Origin: Alphaproteobacteria bacterium
Lineage (GTDB): Bacteria > Bacteroidota > Bacteroidia > Bacteroidales > FEN-979
Assembly: GCA_009928665.1 (NCBI GenBank)
Contig: SACF01000016.1
Location: 7,474-71,473 of the forward strand
DNA length: 64,000 nt
Direction of reading: 5' to 3'
The translations under genes were made by a program, and so were the position numbers. The notes beneath the pieces are model-generated. The model had not been told where the DNA came from, did no database searches, and was given only the letters and a program-made list of their open reading frames with translations. This document shows, one piece after another, positions 6,281 through 63,195 of this stretch. Numbering within the stretch: position 1 is the first letter of the stretch; each line of letters begins with the position of its first letter.

Positions 6281-6323
6281 AATGAGTAATTGAGTGAATG
6301 AGTGAATGAGTGAATGACTGAAT
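6281..6323. repeat. octamer tandem array (AATGAGTG-type, 5 units)
   Basis: The units read aatgagta attgagtg aatgagtg aatgagtg aatgactg. The array abuts the ATG (rc 6278-6280) of the FG-GAP gene. Confidence 0.95.
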
Positions 6324-6342
6324 TTTTCTGATCTTTTTTCCG

Positions 6343-6384
6343 TTTTCAATTTTCAATTGTCAATTGTCAATTTTCAATTGTCAA
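6343..6384. repeat. heptamer tandem array (TTTTCAA/TTGTCAA, 6 units)
   Basis: The units read ttttcaa ttttcaa ttgtcaa ttgtcaa ttttcaa ttgtcaa. The array contains the dsbD stop codon (6374-6376). Confidence 0.95.
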
Positions 6385-8491
6385 TTCTTAATGCTTCCTT
6401 ATTAAAATTTTCAAGACCGGTATTCAAAAATTTCACAAAGGCGTCCACATTCAGGTCATAGGCCCGCGGCTGTGTCAACAGGTGACCGGAGGTGTCGAGT
6501 AACACGTAATAGGGTTGTGAATTCACGTTAAACCGGGTGATTTGAAGGTCGGCGAATATCTTTCCGATCGTCTTCTTCACTTTTTTATCGTAGGTGGATG
6601 TGACCCACTCCGGTTGCGGGAGTTCTGTTTTATCGTCGACGTAAAGCGCCGTGACCAGATAGTTTTCGCGTAAGATTTTAAGCACTTTTGGATCGGACCA
6701 CACATTTGCTTCCATTTCGCGGCAGTTGACGCAACCGTGTCCGGTGAAATCGATAAAGAGAGGTTTATTCATTTTTTTGGAGCAGGCCAACGCCTGTTTG
6801 TAGTCGAAATAGCCTTCGAGTCCGTGCGGAAGCTTAAGGAAATCGGCATATTTGGGCTTGTCGCACAGGGAGGACGGGGTTTGCCCGGCGTTTCCGCCCC
6901 CGGAGCCGATCGTGGCAACTTCCGATTTCACGATGGCATTGATATCGAAATCCTGATAGGTTGTAGGGGGAAGGTAACCCGAAAGGGCCTTCAGGGGAGC
7001 CCCCCACATTCCTGGGATCATATAAACCACGAAGGAGAAGACGATGATGGCGAGGATGATGCGGGGCACGCTGATGAACGGGAGATCGGAATCGTGGTTG
7101 AATTTAAGTTTGCCGATCAGGTACATTCCCATCAGGAAGAAGATCACGATCCAGAAGGCGAGGTAGACTTCCCGGTCGAGGATATGCCAGTGGTAGGTCT
7201 GGTCGGCGATGCTCAGGAACTTCAATCCCAGCGCCAGTTCAAGGAATCCCAGCACCACCTTTACGGAGTTAAGCCATCCGCCTGATTTTGGGAGTTGTGC
7301 GAGCCACGAGGGGAAAAAGGCAAACAATCCGAAGGGCAGGGCAAAGGCAAGGGAGAAGCCGAACATACCGATGATGGGCATGAGGATGTCTCCGCTGGCT
7401 GATTTCACGAGGAGGGCGCCCACGATGGGTCCGGTGCAGGAGAAGGAGACAAGAACCAGCGTGAATGCCATGAAAAAAGCGCCGCCATAACCGCCTTTAT
7501 CGGCCTGGCGGTCGGCTGTATTTACCAGCCAGCTTGGAAGGGTGATCTCGAACATTCCCAGAAAGGATGCCGCGAATACCATGAAAATTACGAAAAAGAA
7601 GATATTCGGCAGCCAGTGGGTACTGATGAAGTTGTTGAAGTTGGCGCCCATCGTGACGGCTACCAGCACACCCAGTACCATGTAAATCACGATGATCGAT
7701 AACCCGTACACGATGGCCTCCATTCTCGCCTTGCGCTTATTGGACGTGTCATGCATGAAGAAGGTCACGGTCATCGGGATCATGGGGAACACACAGGGGG
7801 TCACGATGGCCAGTAAACCGGCAACGAAAGAGATGATGAAGAACCAAAGTAACGACTGATCGGCTGCCTTGTCGGCGGCGGTTTCGCCTAACTGTGTCTG
7901 GGAAGGAGCCGGGGTTGCCGGGTTGATCGTGACCGGGGTGATGGCCTTTTTGGAAGTGTCGGTAGCTGCGGGTCCTGCCGTTGTTCCGCCGGTAGTCGTC
8001 GGAGCGGATGAAATTTCGGCCGCAGCGGGATTGCCTTTCAGGTTGAATTCAAATTCAATGTCATTCGGCGGAAGGCACTGTTTATCGTCGCAACACATGA
8101 AATTGACCACCCCTTTCACGACGAAATCTTTGGGACTCAGGATCTTTATCTTTTGTTTGAAGACGGCCTTATCTGCAAAGAATTTCAGAATCATTCCGAA
8201 ATTGGGGTCATTTTCCTCAATGGGCTTTGATTCCCTTACTTTCCCGATCAACTGATAATCCTTGCTTTTGGTAAATGAAAAGGAGGTCGGGAGCGGCCCT
8301 TCTTTATCTGTTGGTATATCCTGGGAATAGAGGTGCCAGGTTTTGTCGATATGAGCGGTCATCACCAGGGTAGCTTCTTCGGGGGTCGGTTGTTCCACTT
8401 TGAAACTCCATTTGACCGGTTCGAGAATCTGCGAATGGACGCAAAAGGGAATCAGAAGCAGGGCCAGCAGGCCGATCCTTAGACTTTTCAT
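6374..8491 (-). CDS. dsbD: protein-disulfide reductase DsbD family protein
   Basis: Signal peptide, an N-terminal DsbD-alpha-like domain (FMCCDDKQCLPP), a polytopic core with TPCVFPMIPMT, and a C-terminal thioredoxin fold with FTGHGCVNCREME. Confidence 0.9.
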   Translation of the reverse strand: MKSLRIGLLALLLIPFCVHSQILEPVKWSFKVEQPTPEEATLVMTAHIDKTWHLYSQDIPTDKEGPLPTSFSFTKSKDYQLIGKVRESKPIEENDPNFGMILKFFADKAVFKQKIKILSPKDFVVKGVVNFMCCDDKQCLPPNDIEFEFNLKGNPAAAEISSAPTTTGGTTAGPAATDTSKKAITPVTINPATPAPSQTQLGETAADKAADQSLLWFFIISFVAGLLAIVTPCVFPMIPMTVTFFMHDTSNKRKARMEAIVYGLSIIVIYMVLGVLVAVTMGANFNNFISTHWLPNIFFFVIFMVFAASFLGMFEITLPSWLVNTADRQADKGGYGGAFFMAFTLVLVSFSCTGPIVGALLVKSASGDILMPIIGMFGFSLAFALPFGLFAFFPSWLAQLPKSGGWLNSVKVVLGFLELALGLKFLSIADQTYHWHILDREVYLAFWIVIFFLMGMYLIGKLKFNHDSDLPFISVPRIILAIIVFSFVVYMIPGMWGAPLKALSGYLPPTTYQDFDINAIVKSEVATIGSGGGNAGQTPSSLCDKPKYADFLKLPHGLEGYFDYKQALACSKKMNKPLFIDFTGHGCVNCREMEANVWSDPKVLKILRENYLVTALYVDDKTELPQPEWVTSTYDKKVKKTIGKIFADLQITRFNVNSQPYYVLLDTSGHLLTQPRAYDLNVDAFVKFLNTGLENFNKEALRIDN

Positions 8492-8675
8492 ACGTGTTGT
8501 ATTGGTGACTTCAAGTATAATATGGCTGACAGAAAACTTTAAAAACCGGGTGTTTTCGGCATTGGGTTGATGACAAAGCCGGAAGCCCGGAAAACGATTG
8601 ATTTGATCACTGCTGCAAAGATATAGAAATTTACTTATGTAATCCCGCCGGTAAGTTATAGCATGCGTTGCATGG

Positions 8676-9371
8676 TCAGTCTTTCAGAATCCTGACCTCG
8701 GTCCGCCGGTTTTTCTGTTTGCCTTCATCCGTATCATTGTCGGCCACCGGCTGGGTTTCACCATATCCCCTGGCGATGATCCGGTTTTCGGCGACACCCT
8801 TTCGTATCAGGTACGATCGCACGGCATTGGCACGGTCGGCGGAGAGTTTCATGTTGGCATCGGGCGATCCCACATTGTCGGTATGTCCCGCAATCTCGAT
8901 CTCCATTTTTGGTTTAATCTTCAGCACCGTCACCAGTTCATCGAGCGCGGTATTAGACTCTTTGCGGATGGTGGCTTTTCCGGTATCAAAGAATACGTTC
9001 TTCAGGGTGAAGATCCTGGGTGGGTCGTATTTCATCGTAAAAGTATAGGTCATACGGTGGTCGCCGCCGGGCACGTCGATCTCCTTGTATTTAACCTGGT
9101 CGCTGAAATACTTGTAATACACAGTATATTTGTCGCCCGAAGGAATCCGGATCGTGCATTTTCCGTCGGCGCCAGTGGTTCCGGCTAACTTCTGTTCCCC
9201 TGTCTTTTTTACGAGAATGATCGTTTCACCCTGGCGTGGTGTGCCGCTTTTGCTGGTGACGATCACATTGAAAACCGCTTCGGTTTCGGAGGGTTTATTG
9301 TCCTGGCTGTATCCACGGATGGTGGATAAAAGAACCAGAGCCAGGAGGACTGAAAATGTTTTGGTTTTCAT
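8676..9371 (-). CDS. OmpA family protein (N-terminal beta-sandwich plus OmpA/MotB C-terminal domain)
   Basis: Signal peptide, plus the motifs IAGHTDNVGSPDANMKLSADRANAVRSYL...NRRTEVRI typical of the OmpA-like peptidoglycan-binding domain. Confidence 0.9.
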   Translation of the reverse strand: MKTKTFSVLLALVLLSTIRGYSQDNKPSETEAVFNVIVTSKSGTPRQGETIILVKKTGEQKLAGTTGADGKCTIRIPSGDKYTVYYKYFSDQVKYKEIDVPGGDHRMTYTFTMKYDPPRIFTLKNVFFDTGKATIRKESNTALDELVTVLKIKPKMEIEIAGHTDNVGSPDANMKLSADRANAVRSYLIRKGVAENRIIARGYGETQPVADNDTDEGKQKNRRTEVRILKD

Positions 9372-9395
9372 GTGTTAATAATTTTATATTTCATT

Positions 9396-9460
9396 GGTCA
9401 CATGGAATATCCATTGTTATCATTCGCGATTTGCATGAACATGTTTCCTATGGATATTTC
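9396..9460 (-). promoter_or_regulatory. ATGGATAT-box pair (inverted, 46-nt offset) upstream of the OmpA-family gene
   Basis: The sense-strand block GATAACAATGGATATTCCATGTGACC (9396-9421) is 24/26 identical to 40074-40099. The inverted partner GAAATATCCAT lies at 9450-9460. Confidence 0.55.
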
Positions 9461-9620
9461 ATAGAATGATGTTTTGATGACAGATTTCCTGTTCTTGCCT
9501 GAATGCAGGGGTGTAGCGACAGGTATTGAATTCCACGATGGGTAGCAAAATACTTCAGATAATTAAACGGTCTGTCGGGAAATGTATTATGGATAGAAGA
9601 AAAAAGCATGCTGGGCGGAT

Positions 9621-11174: not shown

Positions 11175-11212
11175 AAAACAAAAAGAGGGCGTTTTTTTTG
11201 AAAACACCCTCT
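11175..11212 (-). terminator. Rho-independent terminator after korB
   Basis: On the minus strand, AGAGGGTG-loop-CGCCCTCT (8-bp stem, one mismatch) is followed by TTTTGTTTT, 20 nt after the korB stop. Confidence 0.65.
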
Positions 11213-11231
11213 TTTATCGGAATTTCAGTAG

Positions 11232-12269: not shown

Positions 12270-12270
12270 G

Positions 12271-14121: not shown

Positions 14122-14143
14122 AGGTTTAAATCATTTAGACCCG

Positions 14144-14151: not shown

Positions 14152-14160
14152 CTCATTAAA

Positions 14161-14208
14161 GTCAAAAGTCAAAAGTTAAGCATAGAAATCACAAATCGAA
14201 ATCAGATC
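14161..14208. repeat. weak heptamer tract (GTCAAAA x2, AAATC-containing units x3)
   Basis: The tract reads gtcaaaagtcaaaagtt...gaaatcacaaatcgaaatcag and lies in the divergent korA/ferredoxin spacer. Confidence 0.5.
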
Positions 14209-14487: not shown

Positions 14488-14523
14488 AAAAAAATGGCGG
14501 TCCCCGGGGCTGCCATTTTTTTT
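14488..14523. terminator. bidirectional hairpin terminator between the ferredoxin and lpxH genes
   Basis: AATGGCGGTCCCCGGGGCTGCCATT forms an 11-bp stem including G-U pairs. It is flanked by an A-run on the 5' side and a T-run on the 3' side. Confidence 0.65.
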
Positions 14524-16524: not shown

Positions 16525-16805
16525 GATGTTTTTTATGCAAAAGTATACCGAATCGGAACAGGTTTGCAAATAAAGAAACCACATTCATCCTTTAATCCCA
16601 TAAGTTTAAATTCCCCGCCTCTCAGGGACGGAACCCGGGACCAGGGCTTGCCCCGGGGTGAATACCAATTTATTAACCGGATCTAAATGCAAACCGTATC
16701 CCGATTTTCATGGTCAGGCCAATTTTTCAACCATTTTTTCGTTATTAACAGTATTGCCCTGAACTATTTTTTCAGGAATAGTAACGAAGCGATGACTGTT
16801 TAACT

Positions 16806-18753: not shown

Positions 18754-18870
18754 TTTTTACAGCTTTTAGGACGATTTCAATGACTCAGGATCTCCTCCAA
18801 ATGCGTTGATGCAGTTGTATCTGACAGATCAGCATTTCGTTTTTTGCGGACCTGTTCCGATTCGGTATAT

Positions 18871-21494: not shown

Positions 21495-22073
21495 TCAGTA
21501 ATTTTCGGCCAGCAGTTCGAAATAACCCATCGGGTGCTGGCAGGCCGGGCAATTCTGCAGGGCTTTGGTTCCGAAGTGTACATAGCCGCATTTACGGCAG
21601 ATCCAGTACACTTTTTCTTCTTTTTCAAATACCTTGTTTTTCTCAAGGTTGGTAAGCAGTTTGCGATAGCGATTCTCGTGATGCTTCTCGACTGTGGCAA
21701 TCATTTTGAATGCCGTGGCAACTTTGGGAAAACCTTCTTCGCCCGCGATCTTGCCAAACTCGGGATAGAGTTCCGACCACTCTTCAAGTTCCCCATCGGC
21801 GGCAGCTTTCAGATTTTCAGCCGTAGTCCCGATAATTCCGGCCGGGTAGGTCGCGGTGATCTCAACCGGTCCGCCTTCCAGGAAACGGAAGAAAATCTTG
21901 GCATGCTGTTCTTCATTGAGAGCGGTTTCTGCAAAGAGTGCCGCTATCTGTTCATAACCCTCTTTCTGCGCCTGTTTGGCAAAAAAAGTATAACGGTTTT
22001 TTGCCTGCGACTCACCGGCAAATGCCTTGAGAAGGTTCTTTTCGGTAATGGTTCCTTTGATCGATTTTTCCAT
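21495..22073 (-). CDS. rbr: rubrerythrin
   Basis: Ferritin-like diiron helices (EKNLLKAFAGESQAKNRY, EEQHAKIF) plus a C-terminal rubredoxin-like WICRKCGY...CPACQHP. I place the start at MEKSIKGT (ATG rc 22071-22073). Confidence 0.9.
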   Translation of the reverse strand: MEKSIKGTITEKNLLKAFAGESQAKNRYTFFAKQAQKEGYEQIAALFAETALNEEQHAKIFFRFLEGGPVEITATYPAGIIGTTAENLKAAADGELEEWSELYPEFGKIAGEEGFPKVATAFKMIATVEKHHENRYRKLLTNLEKNKVFEKEEKVYWICRKCGYVHFGTKALQNCPACQHPMGYFELLAENY

Positions 22074-22109
22074 AGTGATGATTTTTTTAACCAAAAATAG
22101 TAGTTTTTT

Positions 22110-22268
22110 TCAGATCATCACATAGTCCTCTTTGCCGACCCCGCAAATCGGACACACCCAGTCGTCGGGAATAAGTTCGAACGGGGTTCCCGGTTGTATT
22201 CCCGAATCGGGATCGCCTTTCGCGGGATCATAAATGTGCCCGCAGATGGTGCATTTGTACTGTTTCAT
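22110..22268 (-). CDS. rubredoxin (52 aa, not in the ORF track)
   Basis: My translation is [52 protein letters not shown], with the CxxCG...CPxCG rubredoxin signature. Confidence 0.85.
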
Positions 22269-22277
22269 ACTTTAAAG

Positions 22278-22333
22278 TAGCGATTAGTTATTAGCGGATA
22301 GAGATTAGTTATTAGCGAATAGCGAATAGAATA
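22278..22333. repeat. heptamer tandem array (TAGNNNN, 8 units)
   Basis: The units read tagcgat tagttat tagcgga tagagat tagttat tagcgaa tagcgaa tagaata. The array lies between the gpx stop and the rubredoxin start. Confidence 0.9.
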
Positions 22334-22356
22334 TGGCATTAATTTAACATCAATCG

Positions 22357-22920
22357 TTACTCATTGTTTGTCAGTCCTTTGCCATCTATCCATTTAAGGA
22401 TCCGGTCGCTGGTTGGAGATTCTCCCGGACGTGCAAAACCGACCAGGTTACCATTCTCATCGATCATGAATTTCTGAAAATTCCATTTGACCGGCGCGTC
22501 GAGAACGCCATTCAGCGATTTGGTCGTAAACCATTTGTACAGCGGATCGATATCTTTTCCCTTGACCGATATTTTCGACATCATCGGGAAGGTTACGCCA
22601 TATTTGGTGGTACAGAACTCGATAATCTCGGCATTGGTTCCCGGTTCCTGTCCCAGGAAGTTGTTCGCCGGGAATCCGATGATGGTGAAATTGCCGGAGC
22701 CGTATTTCTGAAAGAGCGCTTCAAGCTGTTCATATTGCGGGGTATAGCCGCATTTCGATGCCACGTTGACTACCAGAACTTTTTTCCCTTTCAAAGTCGA
22801 AAGATCAAAAGGTTTTCCGTCGATCGCGGTTACCTTGAAATCGTAAAACGATTTACCTGACTGGGTCTGGCCCGTCAGGGTTATAAGCGTTGCCATAATT
22901 ATGAAAATTAGTGTCTTCAT
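22357..22920 (-). CDS. glutathione peroxidase family protein with signal peptide
   Basis: VLVVNVASKCGYTPQY, FPANNFLGQEPG and WNFQKFMI motifs. The catalytic residue is Cys (TGC), not Sec. The N-terminus MKTLIFIIMATLITLTGQ is signal-like. Confidence 0.9.
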   Translation of the reverse strand: MKTLIFIIMATLITLTGQTQSGKSFYDFKVTAIDGKPFDLSTLKGKKVLVVNVASKCGYTPQYEQLEALFQKYGSGNFTIIGFPANNFLGQEPGTNAEIIEFCTTKYGVTFPMMSKISVKGKDIDPLYKWFTTKSLNGVLDAPVKWNFQKFMIDENGNLVGFARPGESPTSDRILKWIDGKGLTNNE

Positions 22921-22976: not shown

Positions 22977-23159
22977 AGTAAAAATCTTATTTATAATACG
23001 TCTAAATAAAAATAATTTTCTTAGTTATTGCACGGTTTCCTGATGAAGAGTTTATAGGCGCTTCATCTATCGGATCAGAAATGCAATAAATTAGTAGGAC
23101 TACCCGGAGGATGTGTTTTTATGGAAGGATCGATAACCGAAAAGGCGAAAGGGTTAAAT

Positions 23160-23266
23160 AATTCAAAATGCAAAGAAGGGATTAGGAATCAGCGATTAGC
23201 GAATAGGGAAAAACGTTAATTCAAAATGCAAAGAAGGGATTAGATTTGAGAATAGCGATTAGGGAA
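23160..23266. repeat. 58-nt direct repeat (about 1.8 copies)
   Basis: aattcaaaatgcaaagaagggattag occurs at 23160 and again at 23218 (26/26 identical). Both tails contain agcgatt/aataggg words. Confidence 0.85.
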
Positions 23267-23301
23267 GCAATATTGACCATCTCCGCTACCACGCTATATA
23301 A

Positions 23302-23349
23302 AATCACTCATTCACTCAATCACTCAATTTTATTAATCAGTCATTCAGT
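23302..23349. repeat. octamer tandem array (AATCACTC-type, 6 units; reverse complement of the GAGTGAAT family)
   Basis: The units read aatcactc attcactc aatcactc aattttat taatcagt cattcagt. The array ends 18 nt from the stop of the 23367-24380 gene. Confidence 0.9.
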
Positions 23350-23366
23350 CAACCAAACAGTCCGGA

Positions 23367-24380
23367 TCACCGAAGGATCATGATTTTCCGGGTTTCGGAG
23401 TATTGCCGGTCGAGGAGTATCTTCAGGAAGTAGGTTCCGGATGGGAGTTTTGAGACATCCAGTGTAAATTGGTCGCTATTGGAAACAGATCGACGTTCCA
23501 TACATTTTCCGATATTGTTATAAAGCTGAAAATCGACATCCTGATAAATTTTGTTAAGCGTGACCAGGGCATCATTGATGGCCGGGTTCGGGGTCACGAA
23601 GCTTCGTTGGGTTCCCGGCATCAACTCCCTGATCCCTCCGCCAATATCAATGGAGAAAAGCCTGATCTGGTCGATCATCCATCCTTCGCGGGAAGAAGGG
23701 ATGTTGTCGGAAATAAAATTGAACCGGTAAATGATGGTATCGTAGTCGAGGGCAAGAAATTGATTTTTCACCGCAATTTGAAACCATGCCATGCAGCTTT
23801 GAACCCATCCGTTAGACTTGCCTGAAAAGCCATGTTCCCCGTTAAAGAGCGTCTGGTTTTCCTGATAAAGATTGGTGTTTCCCCACGCCAATGGTTCCGG
23901 GTGGAGCGGTGTAACACAAAAATATTGTTGTGAGATGGTATCATCCAGGATGTTCAGAAAGGTTTGTCCGGCATCCCATGAAACAGATATATAGCCGCCA
24001 TCCTGGAGGGTATCGGTGTCGAACTGGTGCCTGAAATCGATGAATATACTCCAGAAGAACCAACCCGCATAAAAGCCACCCATTGCCGATGGACCGAAGC
24101 CGAATTCAAATGTGGAGTGGTTATTTTCAGGATAGTTTCCCAGTGTATCGGTTACAATGGCGCGCGGGAGTGACCAGGCCTGGTTGAACAGGGTTTTCTG
24201 CGGGACCCCGATCTGCCATATGTTTGCAGGAGAAGCGATAACCGAAATATTGGAGGAGGGCTCCTCGAAGGTGATGGTGGTAAACGGACCGATGGTATCG
24301 CCCGGCGACTTGTGCTCGGTTACCTGCGCAAAGACGGCCATCTGAGCAAGTAACAGAAAAAGAAAGGATATTTTTTTCAT
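23367..24380 (-). CDS. hypothetical secreted protein with T9SS C-terminal sorting domain
   Basis: Signal peptide MKKISFLFLLLAQMAVFAQ. The C-terminus FVTPNPAINDALVTL...LPSGTYFLKILL...KIMILR is CTD-like. Confidence 0.75.
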   Translation of the reverse strand: MKKISFLFLLLAQMAVFAQVTEHKSPGDTIGPFTTITFEEPSSNISVIASPANIWQIGVPQKTLFNQAWSLPRAIVTDTLGNYPENNHSTFEFGFGPSAMGGFYAGWFFWSIFIDFRHQFDTDTLQDGGYISVSWDAGQTFLNILDDTISQQYFCVTPLHPEPLAWGNTNLYQENQTLFNGEHGFSGKSNGWVQSCMAWFQIAVKNQFLALDYDTIIYRFNFISDNIPSSREGWMIDQIRLFSIDIGGGIRELMPGTQRSFVTPNPAINDALVTLNKIYQDVDFQLYNNIGKCMERRSVSNSDQFTLDVSKLPSGTYFLKILLDRQYSETRKIMILR

Positions 24381-24510
24381 ATCTGATGAATTGGGATGGG
24401 AGTTTTATCGAATGATTCGAATGATAATATTACACTCAAATATATGTATTTTTTGGCTTGATATTCAGATTGTTGAAAAATAAATTTCGGTTTGTCAAAA
24501 TTGAAATCAG

Positions 24511-24826
24511 GCATCAGGAATTGGGCATTAGCCATTAGGGGAAAACAGATCAAGGATCAAGGATCAAAGCTCAAGGCTCAAGGCTCAAAGGGTTTCAGTG
24601 TTTCAGTGTTTACTCACAGGAGTGTTTATTTTCAGTGGTGTTCGTGATTGCTTCGCAATTCAGGGTTTCAGGGTTCAAATGAGGCAATAGGCAATAGAGA
24701 AAAAAGCAATAATTTGAAATTTTCACATTAGCACATTAGCACATCAGCACATTCTCAAATCCTCAAATCGTTTTCCGTTTTCCATTTTCCATTTTCAATT
24801 GTCAATTGTCAATTGTCCATTCTTCG
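24511..24826. repeat. 316-nt mosaic of at least 9 different 7/8-nt tandem words
   Basis: The words are gcatcag-type x4, gatcaag/gctcaag x6, gtttcagt x3, cagggttt x2, ggcaata x2, cacattag x4, ctcaaatc x2, and ttttcc(g/a)/ttttcaa/ttgtcaa/ttgtcca x8. Confidence 0.95.
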
Positions 24827-24862
24827 TCCACTTGTTCAGTGGTGCTTTGGTTTTCCCGGCTA

Positions 24863-25186
24863 TCACTCACTTTCGGTGTTCAGCTTCCTGATTTTCGCGT
24901 TAAGAACTTTGTAGATTCCCAGGGAGACGAGAAACAGGATTCCCCATTGAATCAGGATGCGGGAATAGTTGATGAGGATGTATGATTCGAAACCATACGG
25001 GCTATGGGGTGGGGTGGCAAAAAAATGGTATCCGACCGGAACTTTCCGAATATCTCCGAACGGGTCAACTACAGCGTCCCACGGCGGAAACAGGGCTGTG
25101 AGGATAAAGATCAGGAAACACAGGAACAACAATCCGTTTCTGATCCTGATCATTTGTCTTGTATGCTTTTCGTGGGTTATCTTCAT
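24863..25186 (-). CDS. hypothetical small membrane protein
   Basis: 107-aa ORF with two hydrophobic helices (LLFLCFLIFILTALF, ILFLVSLGIYKVL). I recognise no family. Confidence 0.4.
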   Translation of the reverse strand: MKITHEKHTRQMIRIRNGLLFLCFLIFILTALFPPWDAVVDPFGDIRKVPVGYHFFATPPHSPYGFESYILINYSRILIQWGILFLVSLGIYKVLNAKIRKLNTESE

Positions 25187-26269: not shown

Positions 26270-26345
26270 TTTACAGATTTAAAATTTTCTATTTACGATT
26301 GAACAAGATTTTCGATTTACGAATGAATTGCTGATCAATGAATGT
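26270..26345. repeat. degenerate heptamer tract (ATTTACG family)
   Basis: The tract reads tttacag atttaaa attttct atttacg attgaac aagattt tcgattt acgaatg.... Its core is shared with 44261-44297. Confidence 0.7.
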
Positions 26346-26445
26346 TATTTTCAAATTAAATATAACAGGTTAATGTCAAACCTCATGGTATATGATCGTA
26401 TTCATAAGGTGGTTACCATAAATCAGAAATCGAACATTCAATCTA

Positions 26446-26516
26446 AAATCATGTCAATTATAAATCATTGAGTTTTAAATCATGTCAATCGTAAATCATG
26501 TCAATCGTAAATTAAT
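26446..26516. repeat. ~16-nt tandem repeat (AAATCATGTCAATCGT, about 4.4 units)
   Basis: The units read aaatcatgtcaattat / aaatcattgagtttt / aaatcatgtcaatcgt / aaatcatgtcaatcgt / aaattaat. The array lies upstream of the ABC transporter gene. Confidence 0.9.
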
Positions 26517-40029: not shown

Positions 40030-40073
40030 TTTTGAATAATTTTATAATTAATGTGCTTATATTTATTTTTTCG

Positions 40074-40366: not shown

Positions 40367-40374
40367 TAACTTTG
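40367..40374 (+). promoter_or_regulatory. candidate -7 box (TAACTTTG)
   Basis: Matches TAnnTTTG, 20 nt upstream of the ATG at 40395. Confidence 0.35.
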
Positions 40375-40394
40375 TCATAACATTTTTTTTCTCC

Positions 40395-44134: not shown

Positions 44135-44260
44135 TTGTAAATAATTCTATATTTCATCTGATCAGATCTTCAGGATGCATTCAAAACGGATATAAAGTTA
44201 TGCATTATTTTTATATCTGTTAAAGGATGATTTGTTTTTTTCTCAGGAGAAAAAACTTTT

Positions 44261-44297
44261 ATTTACGATTGACAAGATTTACGATTTACGATTGGAA
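44261..44297. repeat. heptamer tract (ATTTACG family)
   Basis: The tract reads atttacgattgacaagatttacgatttacgattgg, about 31/35 identical to 26291-26325. Confidence 0.85.
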
Positions 44298-49936: not shown

Positions 49937-50581
49937 CTATTTGGTCATTACCTGACCGCCTGTTAATCCGTTCCTTACCCAATCGGCATAGATATCTTTC
50001 GCGATGTTATTGGCAGCCTGATCCACGTAGTTGGGATCGGTAACCGTGATGTCGCCCGTCCAGACGGCCTCTTTGCTGTTTTTCACATAAAGAGATGCCT
50101 TCAGGTTCAGGGTCGATGTGGTCACCCAGTAGCCTCCGGTGGCAACACCGCCACCCCAGTAGCCGCCGCCCCAATAGCCGCCTCCCCAGTAACCGCCACC
50201 CCAGCCGCCATAATAGGTGGGAGGAACATAGCTTTGTGATTTATCAGTGCCGGTATATTTAAAGACCAGGACACTGTTGGCTCCCAGGCTGTCGATCTTC
50301 TTCAGCACGTCGTCCATGGGATACTTCACGGTGGGATTGAGAAAATCAAGCGAACCGATGGTTTTCAGCCCTTGCGACTGGAAATAGGCAACCATTGATT
50401 GCTCAAAGGGCTTGGTGTACTCAAGTTTTTCGAACAGCGGGAAAATGACCACCCGCGTGACTTTGGTATTGTCGGCCGGGTTTTTCCACGAGGTCAGGGT
50501 GACCGGCGCATCACAGGAATTTAAAAAGATAACGGCACAAAGAAGTGCTATTACCCCGAACATGCGGTTGAGTGTTTTCAT
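49937..50581 (-). CDS. hypothetical lipoprotein with internal (GGGYW)n insert (DUF4136-like, by recollection)
   Basis: I place the start at MKTLNRMFGVIALLCAVIFLNSC (ATG rc 50579-50581). The insert reads YYGGWGGGYWGGGYWGGGYWGGGVATGGYW. Confidence 0.65.
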   Translation of the reverse strand: MKTLNRMFGVIALLCAVIFLNSCDAPVTLTSWKNPADNTKVTRVVIFPLFEKLEYTKPFEQSMVAYFQSQGLKTIGSLDFLNPTVKYPMDDVLKKIDSLGANSVLVFKYTGTDKSQSYVPPTYYGGWGGGYWGGGYWGGGYWGGGVATGGYWVTTSTLNLKASLYVKNSKEAVWTGDITVTDPNYVDQAANNIAKDIYADWVRNGLTGGQVMTK

Positions 50582-50731
50582 AGGGTTATATTTGATCTGA
50601 CAAATATAGAAAAAGTAAGTATTATTATGAACTCCGTTTATACACATCACTTAAATTTTCGAGATCCTGACCTGAGCCTGGTCTTTCAAGGATATTCCCG
50701 GGTATTGCTGCCCGATATTCAAATGCCATGA

Positions 50732-51067: not shown

Positions 51068-51342
51068 TCCCCCAGTTTTTTCGTGGTTTGGCTTAGCTGA
51101 TATTACTCCCGGGAGGCATCCCGGGCACTTGTTCCATCTCCCGGCTGAAAACCTGAGCGAGTTGGCCAGCGAGAACGTCCTGTCATAAGTTTTTTCGCGG
51201 GTTGTTCTTTTCCACCTGAGTCGTATTTGACTTTTGAATTTTCGTTTTCTCCATTCTCCTCAAATCAGGTGAAAAACAATACGGTCAAAAACTTAACCCG
51301 ACCATTTACTTATTATAGATTGCGTCAAGGGAGATAGTGACT

Positions 51343-53934: not shown

Positions 53935-53960
53935 AATTGCAAACTGTTGACGTTGCAATT
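53935..53960. terminator. weak candidate hairpin between convergent genes
   Basis: AATTGCAA-N10-TTGCAATT forms an 8-bp AT-rich stem that overlaps the stop at 53959-53961. Confidence 0.3.
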
Positions 53961-55452
53961 ACTGCAGAATAAGTTTCCCGGAGCCATTCCAATCGGATGA
54001 GGTTACTTTCCAGAAGTAAATCCCCCGTGGCAGGAAGTCCGTTGCGATGCTGATAACGTCGTGATTTAGATTTGCATACAAAACCTGTTTGCCCTGCAAA
54101 TTGTACAGGCTGAATCCGGTTGCTGCGTCAATCGCAGACCCCGTCGGTGTGACGGTTATTTTATCCGATGCCGGGTTAGGGAACACGGTTACAATAGGTT
54201 GGACTCCAATGGGGTGGTCCTCAATGCCAACCAGGGTCTGGCAATCAGGTGCAACCGGGGTTCCCCAGGTCTCCCCGCTGCGGTTAAACCAGACCAACGA
54301 CTCTTGCGATCCGGACCACATCTCCAGCGTCTGGTTATGGGTCAATCCCAACCCCGGAGCGTATTCTTCCAGGTGCCAGTACTCCCACAAAGAGTTACTC
54401 CAACAGGTCGGGAGTGTGATTCCGAAATTGTAACTGTCATACTCAATGGCCTTGACCTGGCGGTTGTTGAAATCCTTGCTGCGACGGGAGTAACGGTTTG
54501 CGATCTGGTCGGGCAATGTCGTAGAACTCACGCTGAGCTCACCGGGAAGCGGCGTGAATGGGGTAATCGTGTCTAACGCCAGGAAATTGTACCTGATCAG
54601 GATGGTGTCATGAAGGGTGGTAACTCCCGGCGGCGGAGCAGCTTCCATCCTCCGGCACCGCTCGAAGATGTAATCTACCGAGTCGGTTCCGTTGCCTGTT
54701 TTCCCGATCACATTCATGATCGTTTTTGTGTCGGCCATACCCCCCATATCATCGATATGCCCCTCATAATGAAACTGATCACCCACGGAGAAATCATAAA
54801 CGTCGCGCCAGCCGAAATCCTGTGCGCCCATCGGAGGAGTCGATTTTCCTTCGAGGGAATAGAATCTGACCTGTTCGGGGAGGAAATAGACGTCATAGAA
54901 GGTAACCAGTCCGTAATGCTGGCTGAGTTTGAAAGGCTGGTCATTAAGCGGATGGCTGATGTTGGCGCCCGACTGATTTTTCGCCTGAAGCGTGATCAGT
55001 TTTACCTGGTCCGATTGCCCTAAAACCTGTTCGACCGTGAGGGAATTAACCGTTGCCGTAACATATCCGCCACCTGAAAGGTTGCAGAACCGCCACGACT
55101 GACCTGTAGTGGAAGCCGTATTGATCCTGATGGTGTCGTCGTTCCGGTTGAAAAAATAGTACCATCCGTCGTGGGTGAGAATCACCTTTTCACCCAATAC
55201 CGATCCACCGGTTGTATCGAGGCAATTAAACATATTAAGAGAATCGCGGATCGTACGGTACGAATAACAGGCTGTATCCTGGCCCGGCAACACCAGCGTG
55301 GAGTCGAGCCGGAAGGCTTTTATATTCTCCACAGTATCTGAATTGCTGTAAAAAGTGGTTCCCGGCGAACAAATGTTTTGCCAGCTCTGGGCAAAGAGAA
55401 TCCCCGGAAGAGAACAAAGGATTCCAAAAAGTAGGCGAAGGGGCGTTTTCAT
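53959..55452 (-). CDS. hypothetical secreted protein with T9SS C-terminal sorting domain
   Basis: Signal peptide MKTPLRLLFGILCSLPGILFAQ. The C-terminus VTVFPNPASDKITVT...GIYFWKV...KLILQ is CTD-like. Confidence 0.75.
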   Translation of the reverse strand: MKTPLRLLFGILCSLPGILFAQSWQNICSPGTTFYSNSDTVENIKAFRLDSTLVLPGQDTACYSYRTIRDSLNMFNCLDTTGGSVLGEKVILTHDGWYYFFNRNDDTIRINTASTTGQSWRFCNLSGGGYVTATVNSLTVEQVLGQSDQVKLITLQAKNQSGANISHPLNDQPFKLSQHYGLVTFYDVYFLPEQVRFYSLEGKSTPPMGAQDFGWRDVYDFSVGDQFHYEGHIDDMGGMADTKTIMNVIGKTGNGTDSVDYIFERCRRMEAAPPPGVTTLHDTILIRYNFLALDTITPFTPLPGELSVSSTTLPDQIANRYSRRSKDFNNRQVKAIEYDSYNFGITLPTCWSNSLWEYWHLEEYAPGLGLTHNQTLEMWSGSQESLVWFNRSGETWGTPVAPDCQTLVGIEDHPIGVQPIVTVFPNPASDKITVTPTGSAIDAATGFSLYNLQGKQVLYANLNHDVISIATDFLPRGIYFWKVTSSDWNGSGKLILQ

Positions 55453-55485
55453 ATGGTTAAGAGTTTAAAATTCACAGAAGCGATT

Positions 55486-55534
55486 ATTCGCTAATCCCTA
55501 TTCGCTAATCCCAAATCGCTGATCCCTGATGACT
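55486..55534. repeat. heptamer/14-mer tandem array (ATTCGCT AATCCCT, 7 heptamers)
   Basis: The units read attcgct aatccct attcgct aatccca aatcgct gatccct gatgact. The last unit overlaps the stop of the PQQ-propeller gene. Confidence 0.9.
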
Positions 55535-56786
55535 ACTGCCTGATTTGATAGGCCATCAGCGCATTACCATGCCTGATATAAAGAACCCCACGGTCGATCA
55601 CCGGGTGTGCGAAATGTTCCTGTTTCCCCATGGTCGCCTTGAACATGCTCACCAGCTCGGGGCCGGTTGATGAGGGCCGTATCAGGTTTACCTCACCCCG
55701 GTGGGTGTAATAATAGAGCATCCTGCCGTCTGAAATGAGCGCTCCAATGCCACATTTCAGCACGCTTTTAACCTCCCCGGTGGTTATATCAACACTGATC
55801 AGCGCCTTTCTCGAGTCACTACCCGTGTAGATAAGGTTTCCCTGTTTGATAAAACCGCTCATGTAGTTGTCGACGGTCGGGTTTCGCCATACCTGCCTGA
55901 TGCTGGCGCCATCAGGGCCAAGGATCAGCCGCACCGCCCCGTTCCCGTCGCCGGCCAGGTAAAAGATGGCTCCGTTTTCATACCATATGGTGTTACTGTG
56001 TGTATCACCGTTTCCCAATTTGCGTTCGGCGGGTGGAATGTTGTCCTGCGGATGGGTCCAGAGCAGCTTGCCCGTTTTTGCATCGATTCCCAGCAGGGAA
56101 TAGGCCGAAAAGGTTACCAGGATCGTCCGCGACGGGAGCCTGATGATCAGCGGGGAGTTGTAACCCTGCCGCTCTCCGTCGCCAGGACAACCCCAGACAT
56201 GTTTACCCGTAAAACGGTTCAGTGCGACGACCCCCGTATCTTTGCCTCCCGGTGTGAAAAATACCAGGTCGCCATCTACCGCCGGCGACTCAGAATGGCC
56301 GTACAGAGGCATGATCTGGGACCCCGGCCGGTTGTCGAGCCTCCATTTCTCCTTGAATGTGTCCAGGTCGATGCATACCAGGTCTCCCTGTCCTGTGCTG
56401 ACGTAAATGAGGCCGCCCGCAATGGTTGGCGACATGCGCGACCCCGGGTAGTTGACCACCCACTCCTTGCCGAAGGATACCTTGCGGAGCAGTTTTCCCT
56501 GACGGTCGAATTCGAAAAGCCAGGCATTTTCACCCAGTGCACCGCAGATGTATAACTTTCCGTCAAGACAAACCGGTGAACCATATCCTGAACCAATTTC
56601 AGATGATGACCACAGGAGTTCAGGACCTGTAGCCGGCCACTCTTCAAGCGTCTGTTGCTCAGGGTAAACACCCCGTCGGTCATTCCCGCGCCATTGGGCC
56701 TGAACCTGTGGTTGTGCCTGATAAACCGAACCAATAAGTAAAATTGCAGTCAGCGTAATTCTGACCCGGATCAATGGTGAAAGCAT
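55533..56786 (-). CDS. PQQ-like (BamB-like) beta-propeller repeat protein, paralog 1
   Basis: Signal peptide. WRGNDRRGVYPE...GYGSPV...NYPGSRMSPT...AHPVIDRGVLYIRHGNALMAY is collinear with the ORF at 59944-61173. Confidence 0.8.
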   Translation of the reverse strand: MLSPLIRVRITLTAILLIGSVYQAQPQVQAQWRGNDRRGVYPEQQTLEEWPATGPELLWSSSEIGSGYGSPVCLDGKLYICGALGENAWLFEFDRQGKLLRKVSFGKEWVVNYPGSRMSPTIAGGLIYVSTGQGDLVCIDLDTFKEKWRLDNRPGSQIMPLYGHSESPAVDGDLVFFTPGGKDTGVVALNRFTGKHVWGCPGDGERQGYNSPLIIRLPSRTILVTFSAYSLLGIDAKTGKLLWTHPQDNIPPAERKLGNGDTHSNTIWYENGAIFYLAGDGNGAVRLILGPDGASIRQVWRNPTVDNYMSGFIKQGNLIYTGSDSRKALISVDITTGEVKSVLKCGIGALISDGRMLYYYTHRGEVNLIRPSSTGPELVSMFKATMGKQEHFAHPVIDRGVLYIRHGNALMAYQIRQ

Positions 56787-59093: not shown

Positions 59094-59813
59094 TCAGGGT
59101 TTCGGCATACTGAAAAGCCCCGGATCGATCTCCTTGTTGAGTTCGATCGTTTCATACTGCAATGAATTATAAGGTTGCCCGCCGATCCGGGTATCCTGTT
59201 TGAATCCGAACATGATGCCGTCGACCGGCCGGTAATCGCTGAAATAATTCTCCATCAAGATCTCCCTTCCGCGGACCGTCCTGTTGTAAAGGCGTTTTTT
59301 GATCAGGTTATCGCCCGGGTCGATGAAGAGGTATTCGACCCCTCCGTCGTTCTTCGTGATCTTCAATTTATTCATGATTACCTGATTAACGGTATCCTTT
59401 CCCGCAAGTTCAACCAGGTGCCCCTTGGCTTTCCAGTTAAACAGTATCCCTTCAAATTCGGCGGTGATCTTCATGGCGCCAACCCTGTCAGGCGGCATGA
59501 CCTGCGGCTTCGGATTTCCCGTCCAGGGGGTGGTCATCCATGCCGTGGTACCGTCGTACCCCTGGTATGCCGTGAGGTCGGCAATGTCGAATTCCATCAG
59601 GTACTTGTCAGGCCTGAGCCTGTATACCTTTACCGGCATGACGTCATTCTGGGTCATCAGGCCTGTCATGACCATCGAATTAACTTTTTTGAGGTGGTCG
59701 ATGCCCATAGCCTTGTAATATTTATCAAGAATATCGTCAAGCGACTGCTCCTGAGCCACTGCCGGAATGCAGGCCAGCAGGCTGAACAAAAGGTTAACGT
59801 AAAAGCTTTTCAT
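59094..59813 (-). CDS. outer-membrane lipoprotein-sorting (LolA-fold)-like protein
   Basis: Signal peptide MKSFYVNLLFSLLACIPAVAQ. The pattern LDDILDKYYKAMG...YRLRPDKYLMEF...GYDGTTAWM recalls the LolA-like/DUF4367-type family. The assignment is by recollection only. Confidence 0.6.
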   Translation of the reverse strand: MKSFYVNLLFSLLACIPAVAQEQSLDDILDKYYKAMGIDHLKKVNSMVMTGLMTQNDVMPVKVYRLRPDKYLMEFDIADLTAYQGYDGTTAWMTTPWTGNPKPQVMPPDRVGAMKITAEFEGILFNWKAKGHLVELAGKDTVNQVIMNKLKITKNDGGVEYLFIDPGDNLIKKRLYNRTVRGREILMENYFSDYRPVDGIMFGFKQDTRIGGQPYNSLQYETIELNKEIDPGLFSMPKP

Positions 59814-59861
59814 GAGTGATTGACTGATTTATTGAATGAGTGAATGAGTGATTGAGTGAAT
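59814..59861. repeat. octamer tandem array (GAGTGAAT-type, 6 units)
   Basis: The units read gagtgatt gactgatt tattgaat gagtgaat gagtgatt gagtgaat. The array abuts the ATG (rc 59811-59813) of the LolA-like gene. Confidence 0.95.
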
Positions 59862-59917
59862 TTTCAATTTTCAATTGTCAATTGTCAATTGTCCATTGTC
59901 AATTGTCAATTGTCCAT
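59862..59917. repeat. heptamer tandem array (TTTTCAA/TTGTCAA/TTGTCCA, 8 units)
   Basis: The units read ttttcaa ttttcaa ttgtcaa ttgtcaa ttgtcca ttgtcaa ttgtcaa ttgtcca. The first 30 nt are identical to 6343-6372. Confidence 0.95.
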
Positions 59918-59943
59918 TGCCGACTGCCTGTTTTCCGGCCTTT

Positions 59944-62360: not shown

Positions 62361-62398
62361 AAAAAACAAACCGGAGGAATTCCCTGCGGCTCCTCCGG
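62361..62398 (-). terminator. Rho-independent terminator after the oxidoreductase gamma subunit
   Basis: On the minus strand, CCGGAGGA-loop(12)-TCCTCCGG is followed by TTTGTTTTTT, about 85 nt after the stop at 62482. Confidence 0.6.
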
Positions 62399-62481
62399 TC
62401 CGGATAATAAGATCAACGCCGGTAAAATGGTTCCTTTACCCCGGGTGATGTTTGTTAACGGTACGTCAGATCAGGGTTCCG

Positions 62482-63036
62482 TTAATTAAGAACCTGGATC
62501 GGCTTTAAAATCTCTTTCCCCAGCTCGATGGCTTTCTCGTTTTCGGGAATGAGTTTGTGATGCCGTGCGGGTAACGATTTCTCCAATCCTTTATGAATGA
62601 ATTCCGGCGCAACCAGCGGTTTGAGCTTGAGGAACCCGCCCAGCACGATCATGTTAAAGATCTTGGAAAGACCCCGCTTTCCTGCTTCATCCGCAGCTTC
62701 AATGGAATAGATGTTGATATCCTTCCGCTCCGGGAAACGGGTAATCCCGTTGGGATCGTAGATGAGCAATCCGCCCGGTTTAACGGTCTTTTCAAATTTA
62801 TCCATCGACTGCTGATTGAGGATAATGGCAGTGTCGAAGGAATTCAGTATGGGGGAACTGATCCGTTCATCGCTGATGATAACGGTAACATTCGCGGTAC
62901 CGCCCCGCATTTCCGGTCCGTAGGAAGGCATCCAACTGACCTCTTTATTTTGCATCACCCCCGAGTAGGCCAGGATCTTTCCCATGGAAAGAACGCCCTG
63001 TCCGCCGAAACCTGCAATAATGATCTCTTCTGTCAT
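62482..63036 (-). CDS. 2-oxoacid:ferredoxin oxidoreductase gamma subunit
   Basis: IIIAGFGGQGVLSMGKILA...GPEMRGGTA is typical of the POR/VOR/KOR gamma subunit. Confidence 0.85.
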   Translation of the reverse strand: MTEEIIIAGFGGQGVLSMGKILAYSGVMQNKEVSWMPSYGPEMRGGTANVTVIISDERISSPILNSFDTAIILNQQSMDKFEKTVKPGGLLIYDPNGITRFPERKDINIYSIEAADEAGKRGLSKIFNMIVLGGFLKLKPLVAPEFIHKGLEKSLPARHHKLIPENEKAIELGKEILKPIQVLN

Positions 63037-63120
63037 TATTTATTGATTGAATTATTGATTGACTGATTGATTGATATATTTATTGAGTGAATGAGTGATT
63101 GACAATTGAAAATTGAAAAC
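63037..63120. repeat. octamer array (8 units, (T/G)A(T/G/C)T(T/G)A(T/A)T family incl. GAGTGAAT) followed by inverted heptamers (ACAATTG AAAATTG)
   Basis: The units read tatttatt gattgaat tattgatt gactgatt gattgata tatttatt gagtgaat gagtgatt, then gacaattgaaaattgaaaac. The array abuts the ATG (rc 63034-63036) of the gamma subunit. Confidence 0.9.
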
Positions 63121-63141
63121 TAAATATTCTCTAAGGCTTGA

Positions 63142-63195
63142 TTTGAATTTTGAATTAAAAATTTTCTCTATTCGCTATTCGCTAATATCTAATCC
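63142..63195. repeat. heptamer tracts (TTTGAAT x2; CTATTCG x2, CTAATAT, CTAATCC)
   Basis: The tracts read tttgaattttgaat ... ctattcgctattcgctaatatctaatcc and lie just 3' of the beta-subunit stop. Confidence 0.85.

Follow-up and report, generated by a model that had tools for sequence, protein, structure and literature searches.

Ten of the approximately 44 intergenic spacers (about a quarter) in a 64,000-nt stretch of contig SACF01000016.1, hereafter the window, carry head-to-tail arrays of 7- or 8-nt words that change length by whole units between close relatives and take preferred orientations at gene starts and stops. The arrays are long simple-sequence repeats (LSSRs) of the short tandemly repeated repetitive (STRR) type: their units are arranged head to tail, fall within the 5–11-nt range of LSSRs and occur above chance. 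Arrays were detected in the window sequence using Tandem Repeats Finder (TRF), and the words were then confirmed by reading the letters. The gene map, a crude one, consisted of 46 long open reading frames (ORFs) and a 52-aa rubredoxin gene spotted by eye, according to which about 87% of the window is coding; array counts are based on 7,970 nt of intergenic and 56,030 nt of coding DNA. TRF reported a period of 7 or 8, or the multiples 14, 16, 21 and 24, at 10 of the 10 spacers named in an earlier reading of the sequence (the original prediction), which had described the arrays as intergenic and dispersed (Table 1). The TRF rows and the presence of the same words at unlinked loci bear this out, but there was no TRF row at 51226–51269, where degenerate traces had been claimed.

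To define exact arrays we required at least two head-to-tail copies, and shuffled spacers served as the null. Exact arrays of period 7 or 8 numbered 24 in intergenic and 2 in coding DNA, with about 0.5 expected from shuffled spacers. Period 7 accounted for 17 intergenic and both coding arrays (shuffles: mean 0.43, maximum 3) and period 8 for 7 intergenic arrays and none in coding DNA (shuffles: 0.09, maximum 2). In the same count, periods 4 to 6 stayed at chance level, period 9 gave a single array and periods 10 to 12 gave none. Exact arrays make up 5.3% of the intergenic bases of the window and 0.05% of its coding bases. Counted singly, the named words reached a density in intergenic DNA that was 2–100 times that in coding DNA, and about 9 times when pooled, so that the words are not equally frequent in coding sequence, the comparison the original prediction had called for. 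The period-7/8 arrays in intergenic DNA are thus real and statistically strong. At least 14 different words occur in the window, and 8 of the 10 array spacers are flanked by co-directional minus-strand genes. Identical words recur at unlinked loci, as do 78–82-nt composites: 6291–6372 and 59809–59918 share 82 nt at 70–74% identity, and 23167–23244 and 63130–63207 share 78 nt at 79% complementarity. Word order and word-to-word junctions are also common to unlinked spacers. The statement that arrays stop at gene borders holds in general, but the TTGACAA array at 6336–6389 enters the end of a DsbD-like gene.

Array length varies between strains. Exact-protein look-ups with the gamma subunit of 2-oxoacid:ferredoxin oxidoreductase (kor) and with rubredoxin retrieved 20 contigs from ENA, NCBI metagenome-assembled genomes (MAGs), JGI and Logan, which were assembled by differing pipelines; nucleotide identity to the window is 92–96% for the ten gamma-subunit contigs, to which this figure is confined. 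All independent contigs carry arrays at the matching spacers, with lengths that differ by whole words, and alleles of the sister-strain spacers differ by 7, 8, 14 or 21 nt. The kor beta–gamma spacer measures 134, 142, 150, 168, 176 or 211 nt, with 2–5 copies of (ATTCACTC), 1–3 copies of a 21-mer block and an optional middle module. The spacer between the gene for a 409-aa pyrroloquinoline quinone (PQQ)-like protein and a 239-aa gene measures 128, 130, 153 or over 200 nt, with 2 to about 14 copies of (TGGACAA/TTGACAA), and the spacer between the 417-aa and 497-aa genes measures 66, 80 or 93 nt, in 14-mer units. Between the glutathione peroxidase and rubredoxin genes, lengths of 88, 95, 109, 123 and 130 nt reflect heptamer units. 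In the large mosaic (24381–24862; 482, 468 or 458 nt) blocks vary independently, e.g. GATTTGAG with 2 versus 6 copies, and one strain has other words in place of the stop-proximal half while about 140 nt beside the ATG are conserved. By contrast, two repeat-free control spacers from the same contigs were length-stable (145–146 and 255–257 nt) and showed point changes only.

The copy-number polymorphism predicted for sister genomes was therefore found, as unit-step alleles at five array spacers. Identical array alleles turned up in independent samples, and since differently assembled contigs hold arrays at the same loci, an assembly artefact, the outcome that was to overturn the proposal, is ruled out. 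One sister assembly (L254, GCA_035403445.1) has a run of N at 1522–1620, exactly where its sisters carry the mosaic of about 470 nt orthologous to 24381–24862. Copy number shifts by whole units between close relatives, as slippage would give, and this mechanism of variation is well supported; unequal recombination is a possible alternative source of unit-step change. At a greater distance, window positions 55495–56287 (about 800 nt) match a locus of an uncultured Prolixibacteraceae MAG at 80.6% identity. At the spacer orthologous to 55453–55532 that locus carries TAGCGAA-type words and (ATTCACTC)7, and word junctions such as TTGAAAACGGAAAA and TTGAAAATTCACTC are present as well, indicating that array positions persist or are re-created over that distance.

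To examine the arrays outside the window we collected loci from two scans. The exact 24-mer (ATTCACTC)3 was matched against one genome per GTDB species, giving at least 119 stretches, and (TTGACAA)3 was matched against metagenomes, giving at least 120 stretches. Arrays of unseeded words in these genome and metagenome loci (about 1.6 Mb) were again almost all of period 7 or 8. For analysis of polarity at the listed matches of both scans, arrays were masked, ORFs were called with a crude longest-ORF caller and redundant loci were removed. Within 60 nt upstream of a start, ATTCACTC was the sense strand in 36 cases and GAGTGAAT in 7 (p = 9e-6), whereas within 20 nt after a stop, or containing the stop, the order was reversed, with 31 cases of GAGTGAAT and 13 of ATTCACTC (p = 0.01). 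TTGACAA was likewise preferred over TTGTCAA as the sense strand at stops (31 versus 9, p = 7e-4), but there was no bias at starts (12 versus 13); an apparent start-side bias for TTGACAA of 23:12 disappeared on de-duplication. Arrays sit at one end of the spacer, with a median distance of 11–20 nt to the near border and 87–112 nt to the far border.

Same-word inverted partners within 250 nt accompany 26% of the arrays in loci outside the window, and they almost always take one arrangement. Pairs of the form 5′-(GAGTGAAT)n...(ATTCACTC)n-3′ outnumber the opposite arrangement 31 to 0, and 5′-(TTGACAA)n...(TTGTCAA)n-3′ outnumbers its opposite 31 to 3, with loops of 18–160 nt. The pairs read the stop-bearing arm first, and their interiors are unrelated between loci. 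The window's own arrays have no same-word inverted partners. They do follow the orientation rule, which holds for all 4 octamer arrays and for all 3 of the heptamer arrays near stops, and all three start-side arrays lie in the preferred orientation, as in the TAACTGA repeat family discussed below. On the sense strand, the stop-side words TTGACAA/TTGAAAA, TAGCGAA/GGGATTAG and GAGTGATT/TTGACTGA carry a stop codon, and as 7 and 8 are not multiples of 3, the stop within a repeated word falls in all three frames. The ATG-side octamers ATTCACTC, AATCACTC, AATCAGTC and AATCAATC are nearly free of G, contain neither ATG, GTG nor a stop codon, and end 0–3 nt before the starts at 6280, 59813 and 63036. 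The two strands of the octamer differ: GAGTGAAT presents an AUG and a UGA every 8 nt, forming the mini-ORF AUG AGU GAA UGA, and ATTCACTC lacks G as well as start and stop codons.

By record titles, 105 of the 119 genome matches listed (about 88%) are from Bacteroidota. Among these matches, carriers in Cytophagales comprise Dyadobacter, Spirosoma, Larkinella, Hymenobacter, Arcicella and Cyclobacteriaceae; those in Chitinophagales comprise Saprospiraceae, Lewinellaceae, Phaeodactylibacter and Chitinophagaceae; and Bacteroidales-type carriers comprise Marinilabiliaceae, Prolixibacteraceae, Marinifilum and Draconibacterium. No Flavobacteriales, Sphingobacteriales or Bacteroidaceae title appears among the (ATTCACTC)3 matches listed, although these are large Bacteroidota groups, and the distribution within the phylum, as far as these matches go, looks patchy. 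The other carriers listed are two cyanobacteria, Chloroflexota, beta-proteobacterial MAGs, a Verrucomicrobiia MAG, Cloacimonadota, Aegiribacteria and a Metamycoplasmataceae MAG. The last of these (CBDHHR010000159.1, locus L021, 4392–5114) has about 90 copies of ATTCACTC and close variants over some 700 nt; other long ATTCACTC arrays reach 53 copies in Bacteroidetes bacterium UKL13-3 (L096) and 24 copies in L094 and L112. TAACTGA arrays were present in 2 of the loci fetched.

In viral contigs the TTGACAA array was found in 32 stretches and its same-composition scrambles in 2, 15 and 17. Since its scrambles are only 2–16 times rarer, we no longer regard TTGACAA as strongly special in its own right, and by this control word identity is only modestly special. 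In the IMG/VR phage contigs L267, L274, L280, L290 and L294 (52–58% GC) the layout stop-(TTGACAA)4-[GC hairpin and T run]-(TTGTCCA)4 recurs, three times on L274 and with an ATG directly after it in L290. The inverted arrays in these phages lengthen the stem around the terminator-like hairpin.

We favor, with moderate confidence, the explanation that slippage drives 7/8-nt repeats in probably untranslated spacers, that translation filters their orientation and that copy number possibly tunes expression. Arrays would arise, and change length in whole-unit steps, by slipped-strand mispairing; composite mosaics are common to unlinked loci. Translation would then decide which orientation survives beside a gene. 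Beside a stop, the TGA- or TAG-bearing strand would be tolerated and could even supply the stop, such that a stop-bearing array can grow up to or slightly into the gene while a stop-free array would extend the protein. Beside a start, the tolerated strand would be the G-free, AUG-free and stop-free one (ATTCACTC, AATCAATC), giving a weakly structured leader of the kind used by the ribosomes of Bacteroidota, which lack Shine–Dalgarno (SD) pairing. Because GAGTGAAT has an AUG and a UGA every 8 nt, it should be harmful in a leader, and because neither strand of TTGACAA/TTGTCAA carries an AUG, the filter predicts no start-side bias for this word, as seen. The leaders of the window are G-poor (16% G versus 25.6% overall) and an SD-like motif was not evident in them by inspection, which fits the tolerance of ATTCACTC before starts. 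Arrays would expand until a coding constraint is met, and this would explain why they abut gene borders. A change in copy number would alter the length of the 5′ leader or intercistronic spacer and may thereby tune expression of the neighboring gene.

Several points weigh against this explanation. The TAACTGA arrays of MacGregor have the stop-bearing strand upstream of starts (PMC4679880), which a simple filter does not predict. Same-word inverted pairs in 26% of arrays elsewhere, in one arrangement, are more than independent filtering easily gives, and their frequency and arrangement may reflect selection on pairing or a mechanism that generates such pairs. The filter does not account for the near-exclusive use of 7 and 8 nt, since 5, 10 and 11 likewise cannot be divided by 3. 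The filter and the tuning role are inferences, the gene borders in the polarity tests are crude longest-ORF calls rather than curated annotation, and the genome and metagenome samples are the matches listed (at least 119 and at least 120).

Comparison with known element classes indicated that the arrays are not structured RNAs and are probably not mobile elements. No Rfam family reached its gathering score in the window, and no tRNA or tmRNA was found there. RNA folding predicted little structure for the array spacers (−0.04 to −0.17 kcal/mol per nt; z lay between about 0 and +1.4 except in a single spacer, where it was −2), and there are no convincing inverted repeats within the window's array spacers; hairpin and terminator readings of these arrays were rejected on that account. 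Scans of two 20-kb stretches for sigma-70-type promoters and intrinsic terminators gave about as many hits as shuffled sequence, and no terminator call within an array spacer was convincing; the promoter hits inside arrays were trivial TTGACA matches only, which are not meaningful for Bacteroidota promoters. Clean GC-rich hairpins with flanking A and T runs do occur in repeat-free spacers at 14488–14522 and 11181–11215. They are typical bidirectional intrinsic terminators, so canonical terminators exist here and are distinct from the arrays. Clustered regularly interspaced short palindromic repeats (CRISPR) have repeats of about 24–48 nt with unique spacers of comparable length in between, whereas the arrays are 7–8-nt units set head to tail with no spacers between them. 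Repetitive extragenic palindromes and bacterial interspersed mosaic elements (REP/BIME) are imperfect palindromes of about 20–40 nt, frequently in inverted pairs 3′ of stops, at odds with the absence of inverted repeats in the window array spacers and with their weak folding. The original prediction had excluded both classes on the same grounds. Its exclusion of miniature inverted-repeat transposable elements (MITEs) and insertion sequences (IS) stands as regards terminal inverted repeats, which are absent at the arrays; target-site duplications and transposases were not specifically searched, and the statement on transposases extends to 10 of about 47 window proteins, none of which is a transposase by Pfam scan.

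The mosaics could nevertheless represent copies of a MITE-like or REP-like element, mobile or recombining but non-autonomous, which inserts at the borders of genes and whose decaying or expanding arms are the tandem words. The 78–82-nt composites common to unlinked spacers (23167–23244/63130–63207 and 6291–6372/59809–59918), the recurrence of junctions such as TTGAAAACGGAAAA and TTGAAAATTCACTC in a relative that shares one gene at 80.6% identity, and the inverted pairs that bracket spacers in phages and in other genomes, in some cases enclosing a terminator hairpin, would all suit such an element. However, the window shows neither terminal inverted repeats nor defined element ends (target-site duplications and transposases having been outside the search), the sequences enclosed by inverted pairs bear no relation to one another from locus to locus, and alleles differ by whole words within fixed ends, which is the pattern of slippage and not of insertion or excision. 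We therefore consider this origin very unlikely. Alternatively, the arrays may be contingency loci in which slippage switches neighboring genes for surface or secreted proteins through promoter or 5′-untranslated region (UTR) geometry, as at hmw1A. Copy-number polymorphism between strains and the presence of type IX secretion system (T9SS) sorting domains in three array-downstream genes are consistent with this, and at hmw the heptamers form part of the transcribed 5′ UTR and work by way of a hairpin cut by RNase III (PMC12721329). But housekeeping genes (kor gamma subunit, rubredoxin) are equally affected, the largest mosaic lies upstream of, not within, a conserved promoter-like stretch, the window arrays lack a complementary arm or hairpin, and post-stop arrays cannot work in this way, which together make switching decidedly improbable.

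The arrays might also be cis-acting RNA or single-stranded DNA sites, each unit binding one domain of an abundant single-strand binding protein so as to form a copy-number-dependent post-transcriptional regulon. An RNA-binding regulon is what MacGregor proposed for TAACTGA, and the 7–8-nt unit resembles the heptamer-per-protein binding reported for CspB (PMC4679880). The strong sense-strand polarity beside start codons, the location of one array inside the kor gene cluster, where it is probably transcribed, the occurrence of one octamer in many Bacteroidota orders among the matches listed, and the arrays in phage contigs, which rarely keep junk, point the same way. So does the G-free omega leader of tobacco mosaic virus, an SD-independent enhancer with 8-nt direct repeats that works through S1. 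Yet one genome uses many words (at least 14 in the window), which is hard to reconcile with a single specific binder; in viral contigs TTGACAA is only 2–16 times commoner than scrambles of its own composition; arrays in the opposite orientation are just as frequent immediately after stops; and the binders (ribosomal protein S1, a cold-shock-domain protein or an RNA recognition motif protein) are candidates only; on balance we find a dedicated regulon unlikely. Going further, the arrays could form a slippage-tunable layer of translational control for ribosomes without SD pairing, a heritable and rapidly mutable rheostat at hundreds of genes in many Bacteroidota, which we regard as quite unlikely. 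The G-free octamers before starts would then be landing pads for S1 or another single-stranded RNA-binding protein, stop-bearing arrays after stops would insulate cistrons, and inverted pairs would loop out the spacer so that adjacent cistrons are coupled or processed. If such a layer exists, the related cyanobacterial STRR repeats would gain a testable function.

The array loci of the window are listed in Table 1. The sense strand of the array at 6281..6323 has a G content of 0.03 and no ATG, GTG or stop codon; it stops 3 nt before the ATG at 6280 of a gene for an FG-GAP protein with a T9SS sorting domain. The adjacent DsbD-like gene, 6374..8491(−), ends ...ALRIDN* with the codons ATT GAC AAT TGA; its last four codons and TGA stop are the first units of the TTGACAA array, which thus provides the stop codon of that gene, and slippage in this array could alter its C-terminus. 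The mosaic at 23159..23352 comprises two 27-nt copies of TAATTCAAAATGCAAAGAAGGGATTAG, TAGCGAA-type heptamers, 3.4 copies of (AATCACTC) and AATCAGTC/ATTCAGTC. It is collinear with the 63037–63212 mosaic in inverted orientation, and on the sense strand GAGTGATT lies immediately 3′ of the stop of 23367..24380(−). The plus-strand words of the largest mosaic, 24511..24826, are GATCAAG/GCTCAAG, GTTTCAGT, TTCAGGGT, AGGCAAT, CACATTAG, CTCAAATC and TTTTCCA/TTTTCAA/TTGTCAA. It is placed between the stop of 24863..25186(−) and the conserved, repeat-free segment, some 140 nt long, that precedes the ATG at 24380; this segment contains TATATTTG, which matches the Bacteroidota −7 box, TAnnTTTG. The spacer 26270..26516 includes a stretch complementary to 44258–44289. 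In the mosaic at 63037..63212, the sense strand reads TAGCGAA-type words, AATTCAA and TTTTCAA/TTGTCAA, followed by ATTCACTC and AATCAATC octamers up to the ATG at 63036.

Table 1. Arrays of 7- and 8-nt words in the window, with the matching TRF spans
Array	Position	Strand	TRF span	Basis or context
(ATTCACTC/ATTCAGTC), ~5 copies	6281..6323	- (sense)	6281-6386	TRF period 8, 5.4 copies
(TTGACAA/TTGAAAA), ~7 copies	6336..6389	- (sense)	6281-6386	TRF and sequence reading
Weak array: (AAAGTCA), 2.7 copies, and degenerate GAAATCA-type heptamers	14158..14208	.	14158-14176	Flanked by two minus-strand genes
TTCGCTA/TTAACTA-type heptamers, 21-mer super-unit	22278..22333	- (sense)	22278-22329	9 nt upstream of rubredoxin ATG at 22268
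Composite mosaic	23159..23352	+	23302-23328	TRF and sequence reading
Largest mosaic, at least 9 words	24511..24826	-	24548-24821	TRF, sequence reading and sister-strain comparison
ATTTACG-type words and 16-nt unit TCAATCGTAAATCATG, 4.8 copies (26438-26512)	26270..26516	+	26438-26512	TRF
(ATTTACG), 4.4 copies with indels	44259..44297	+	44261-44293	Divergent spacer
(GGGATTAGCGAATA), 3 copies	55485..55534	- (sense)	55485-55527	Just 3′ of stop of 417-aa PQQ-like gene
(ATTCACTC/AATCACTC/AATCAGTC), ~6 copies	59812..59861	- (sense)	59812-59919	Abuts ATG at 59813
(TTGACAA/TGGACAA/TTGAAAA), 8.7 copies	59859..59919	- (sense)	59812-59919	Downstream of stop of 409-aa PQQ-like gene
Intercistronic mosaic between kor beta (TPP_enzyme_C) and gamma (POR) genes	63037..63212	-	63038-63184	176 nt

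The neighbors of the arrays encode the FG-GAP/T9SS protein, the DsbD-like protein, glutathione peroxidase, rubredoxin, two PQQ-like beta-propeller proteins and the beta and gamma subunits of kor. Judging from gene order, the kor beta–gamma mosaic (63037–63212), which lies inside the gene cluster, is most likely transcribed. Pfam scanning of 10 of the approximately 47 window proteins identified T9SS C-terminal sorting domains in two array-flanking proteins (4517..6280 and 23367..24380), and a precomputed Pfam match on an orthologue identified a third array-downstream T9SS gene, encoding 497 aa (53959..55452); these domains, like the 80.6% identity to the Prolixibacteraceae MAG, point to a Bacteroidota host. 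The region 21495–22920 is an oxidative-stress cluster with genes for glutathione peroxidase, rubredoxin (52 aa, and so absent from the 80-aa ORF list) and rubrerythrin, and the array lies between the first two.

Other repeats were observed in the window. A common leader of about 30 nt, 70–90% identical, precedes the minus-strand starts at 9371, 21270, 40029, 44134 and 55452, e.g. ATGAAATATAGAATTATTTACAA before ATGAAAA; like the start-proximal words, it is A/T-rich and G-poor. A 78-nt dispersed repeat, 64–81% identical and with an internal palindrome of the type ATGGAATATCCAT...ATGGATATTTCAT, occurs at 9386–9463, 40064–40141 and 40132–40209, just upstream of the gene start at 9371(−) and in the divergent spacer 40030–40394; its appearance suggests a shared operator or promoter region rather than a tandem-word array. 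The 35–38-nt intergenic motif AAGTATACCGAATCGGAACAGGTTTGCAAATAAAGAAA is found at three unlinked spacers, 16541–16578, 18835–18872 (inverted) and 30431–30465 (inverted), with 83–87% complementarity, and may be a shared regulatory site or promoter. Within ORF 49937..50647(−), 3.8 copies of the 15-nt unit CCGCCACCCCAGTAG (50148–50204) encode a pentapeptide repeat. This coding repeat is unrelated to the intergenic words and contains CCCCAGT by chance.

The arrays matter in practice because they break or gap short-read assemblies, as at the N gap that replaces the largest mosaic in one sister assembly, and because they can supply stop codons, so that gene ends shift. They are also ready-made strain-typing markers for metagenomes. 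The system is experimentally tractable: arrays are abundant in the cultivable Dyadobacter, Spirosoma, Larkinella and Hymenobacter, copy number changes between strains of one species-level lineage, and the start/stop orientation rule is simple.

Knowledge of STRR-type tandem heptamers goes back to about 1990, with the consensus units CCCCAGT, TTGGTCA and CAACAGT for STRR1–3. The original prediction had put forward STRRs as the nearest analogue, and as an analogy this is apt: both systems have tandem heptamers, many dispersed intergenic arrays per genome and several word families. The window arrays are not STRR members, however. STRRs belong to heterocystous cyanobacteria, whereas the window host is a Bacteroidota; tandem copies of the three STRR consensus units are absent from the window; and in the window octamers rank equally with heptamers and a single spacer can hold several adjoining words. 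The further suggestion that such arrays are undescribed for Bacteroidota did not survive, since MacGregor (2015) reported, for five Bacteroidetes, both TAACTGA direct repeats and "larger assemblages of heptamer repeats", located mainly a short way before starts, with TAACTGA arrays also in Beggiatoaceae and Cyanobacteria and contigs that break at repeats (PMC4679880). A broad literature search for STRRs in Bacteroidetes returned nothing relevant, and the 16-mers (ATTCACTC)2 and (GAGTGAAT)2 were not found in ranked full-text results. We found no earlier description of the octamer class, the unit-step hypervariability between strains, the start/stop orientation rule, the single arrangement of inverted pairs or the wide distribution over Cytophagales, Chitinophagales and Marinilabiliales-type carriers.

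The TAACTGA family is like the window arrays in consisting of intergenic heptamer arrays, often a few nucleotides from a start and in one orientation, with occasional reverse arrays right after stops, mixed assemblages and contig breaks. It differs in that TAACTGA carries two stop codons while the start-upstream strand of the window is G-free and stop-free; TAACTGA itself occurs in the window as one single copy, with no tandem. Strain-level hypervariability, octamers and a fixed arrangement of inverted pairs are not in the TAACTGA report (PMC4679880). As summarized there, Mrazek (2007) found heptanucleotides to be the commonest LSSRs in prokaryotes, and the LSSR description agrees with the window in its 5–11-nt units longer than chance, in the exclusion of non-triplet units from coding DNA and in slippage as the proposed origin; that summary lists no Bacteroidetes among the ten genomes richest in 5–11-nt repeats and does not mention gene-border polarity (PMC4679880). 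Bacteroidetes lack SD sequences, and mRNA structure tunes initiation (PMC6847099, PMC7797042), which also fits the tolerance of ATTCACTC before starts.

No general function is assigned to such heptamer arrays in PMC4679880 or PMC12721329, but individual arrays transcribed into a 5′ UTR can tune expression, as does (ATCTTTC)n at hmw1A of Haemophilus influenzae, which acts through an RNase III hairpin (PMC12721329). The hmw promoter repeats had been offered as a functional precedent, which only partly fits arrays that are intercistronic in the kor cluster, placed at start and stop codons or upstream of a promoter-like stretch. Both hmw1A/hmw2A and the window have heptamer repeats of variable copy number upstream of genes; transcription into the 5′ UTR and the setting of expression by copy number are established for hmw (PMC12721329) and may apply to the window arrays. 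In hmw the repeats are limited to adhesin genes and form a long hairpin with a G-rich arm that is cut by RNase III (PMC12721329), whereas the window arrays have no complementary arm, occupy many loci and are found also at housekeeping genes and stop codons.

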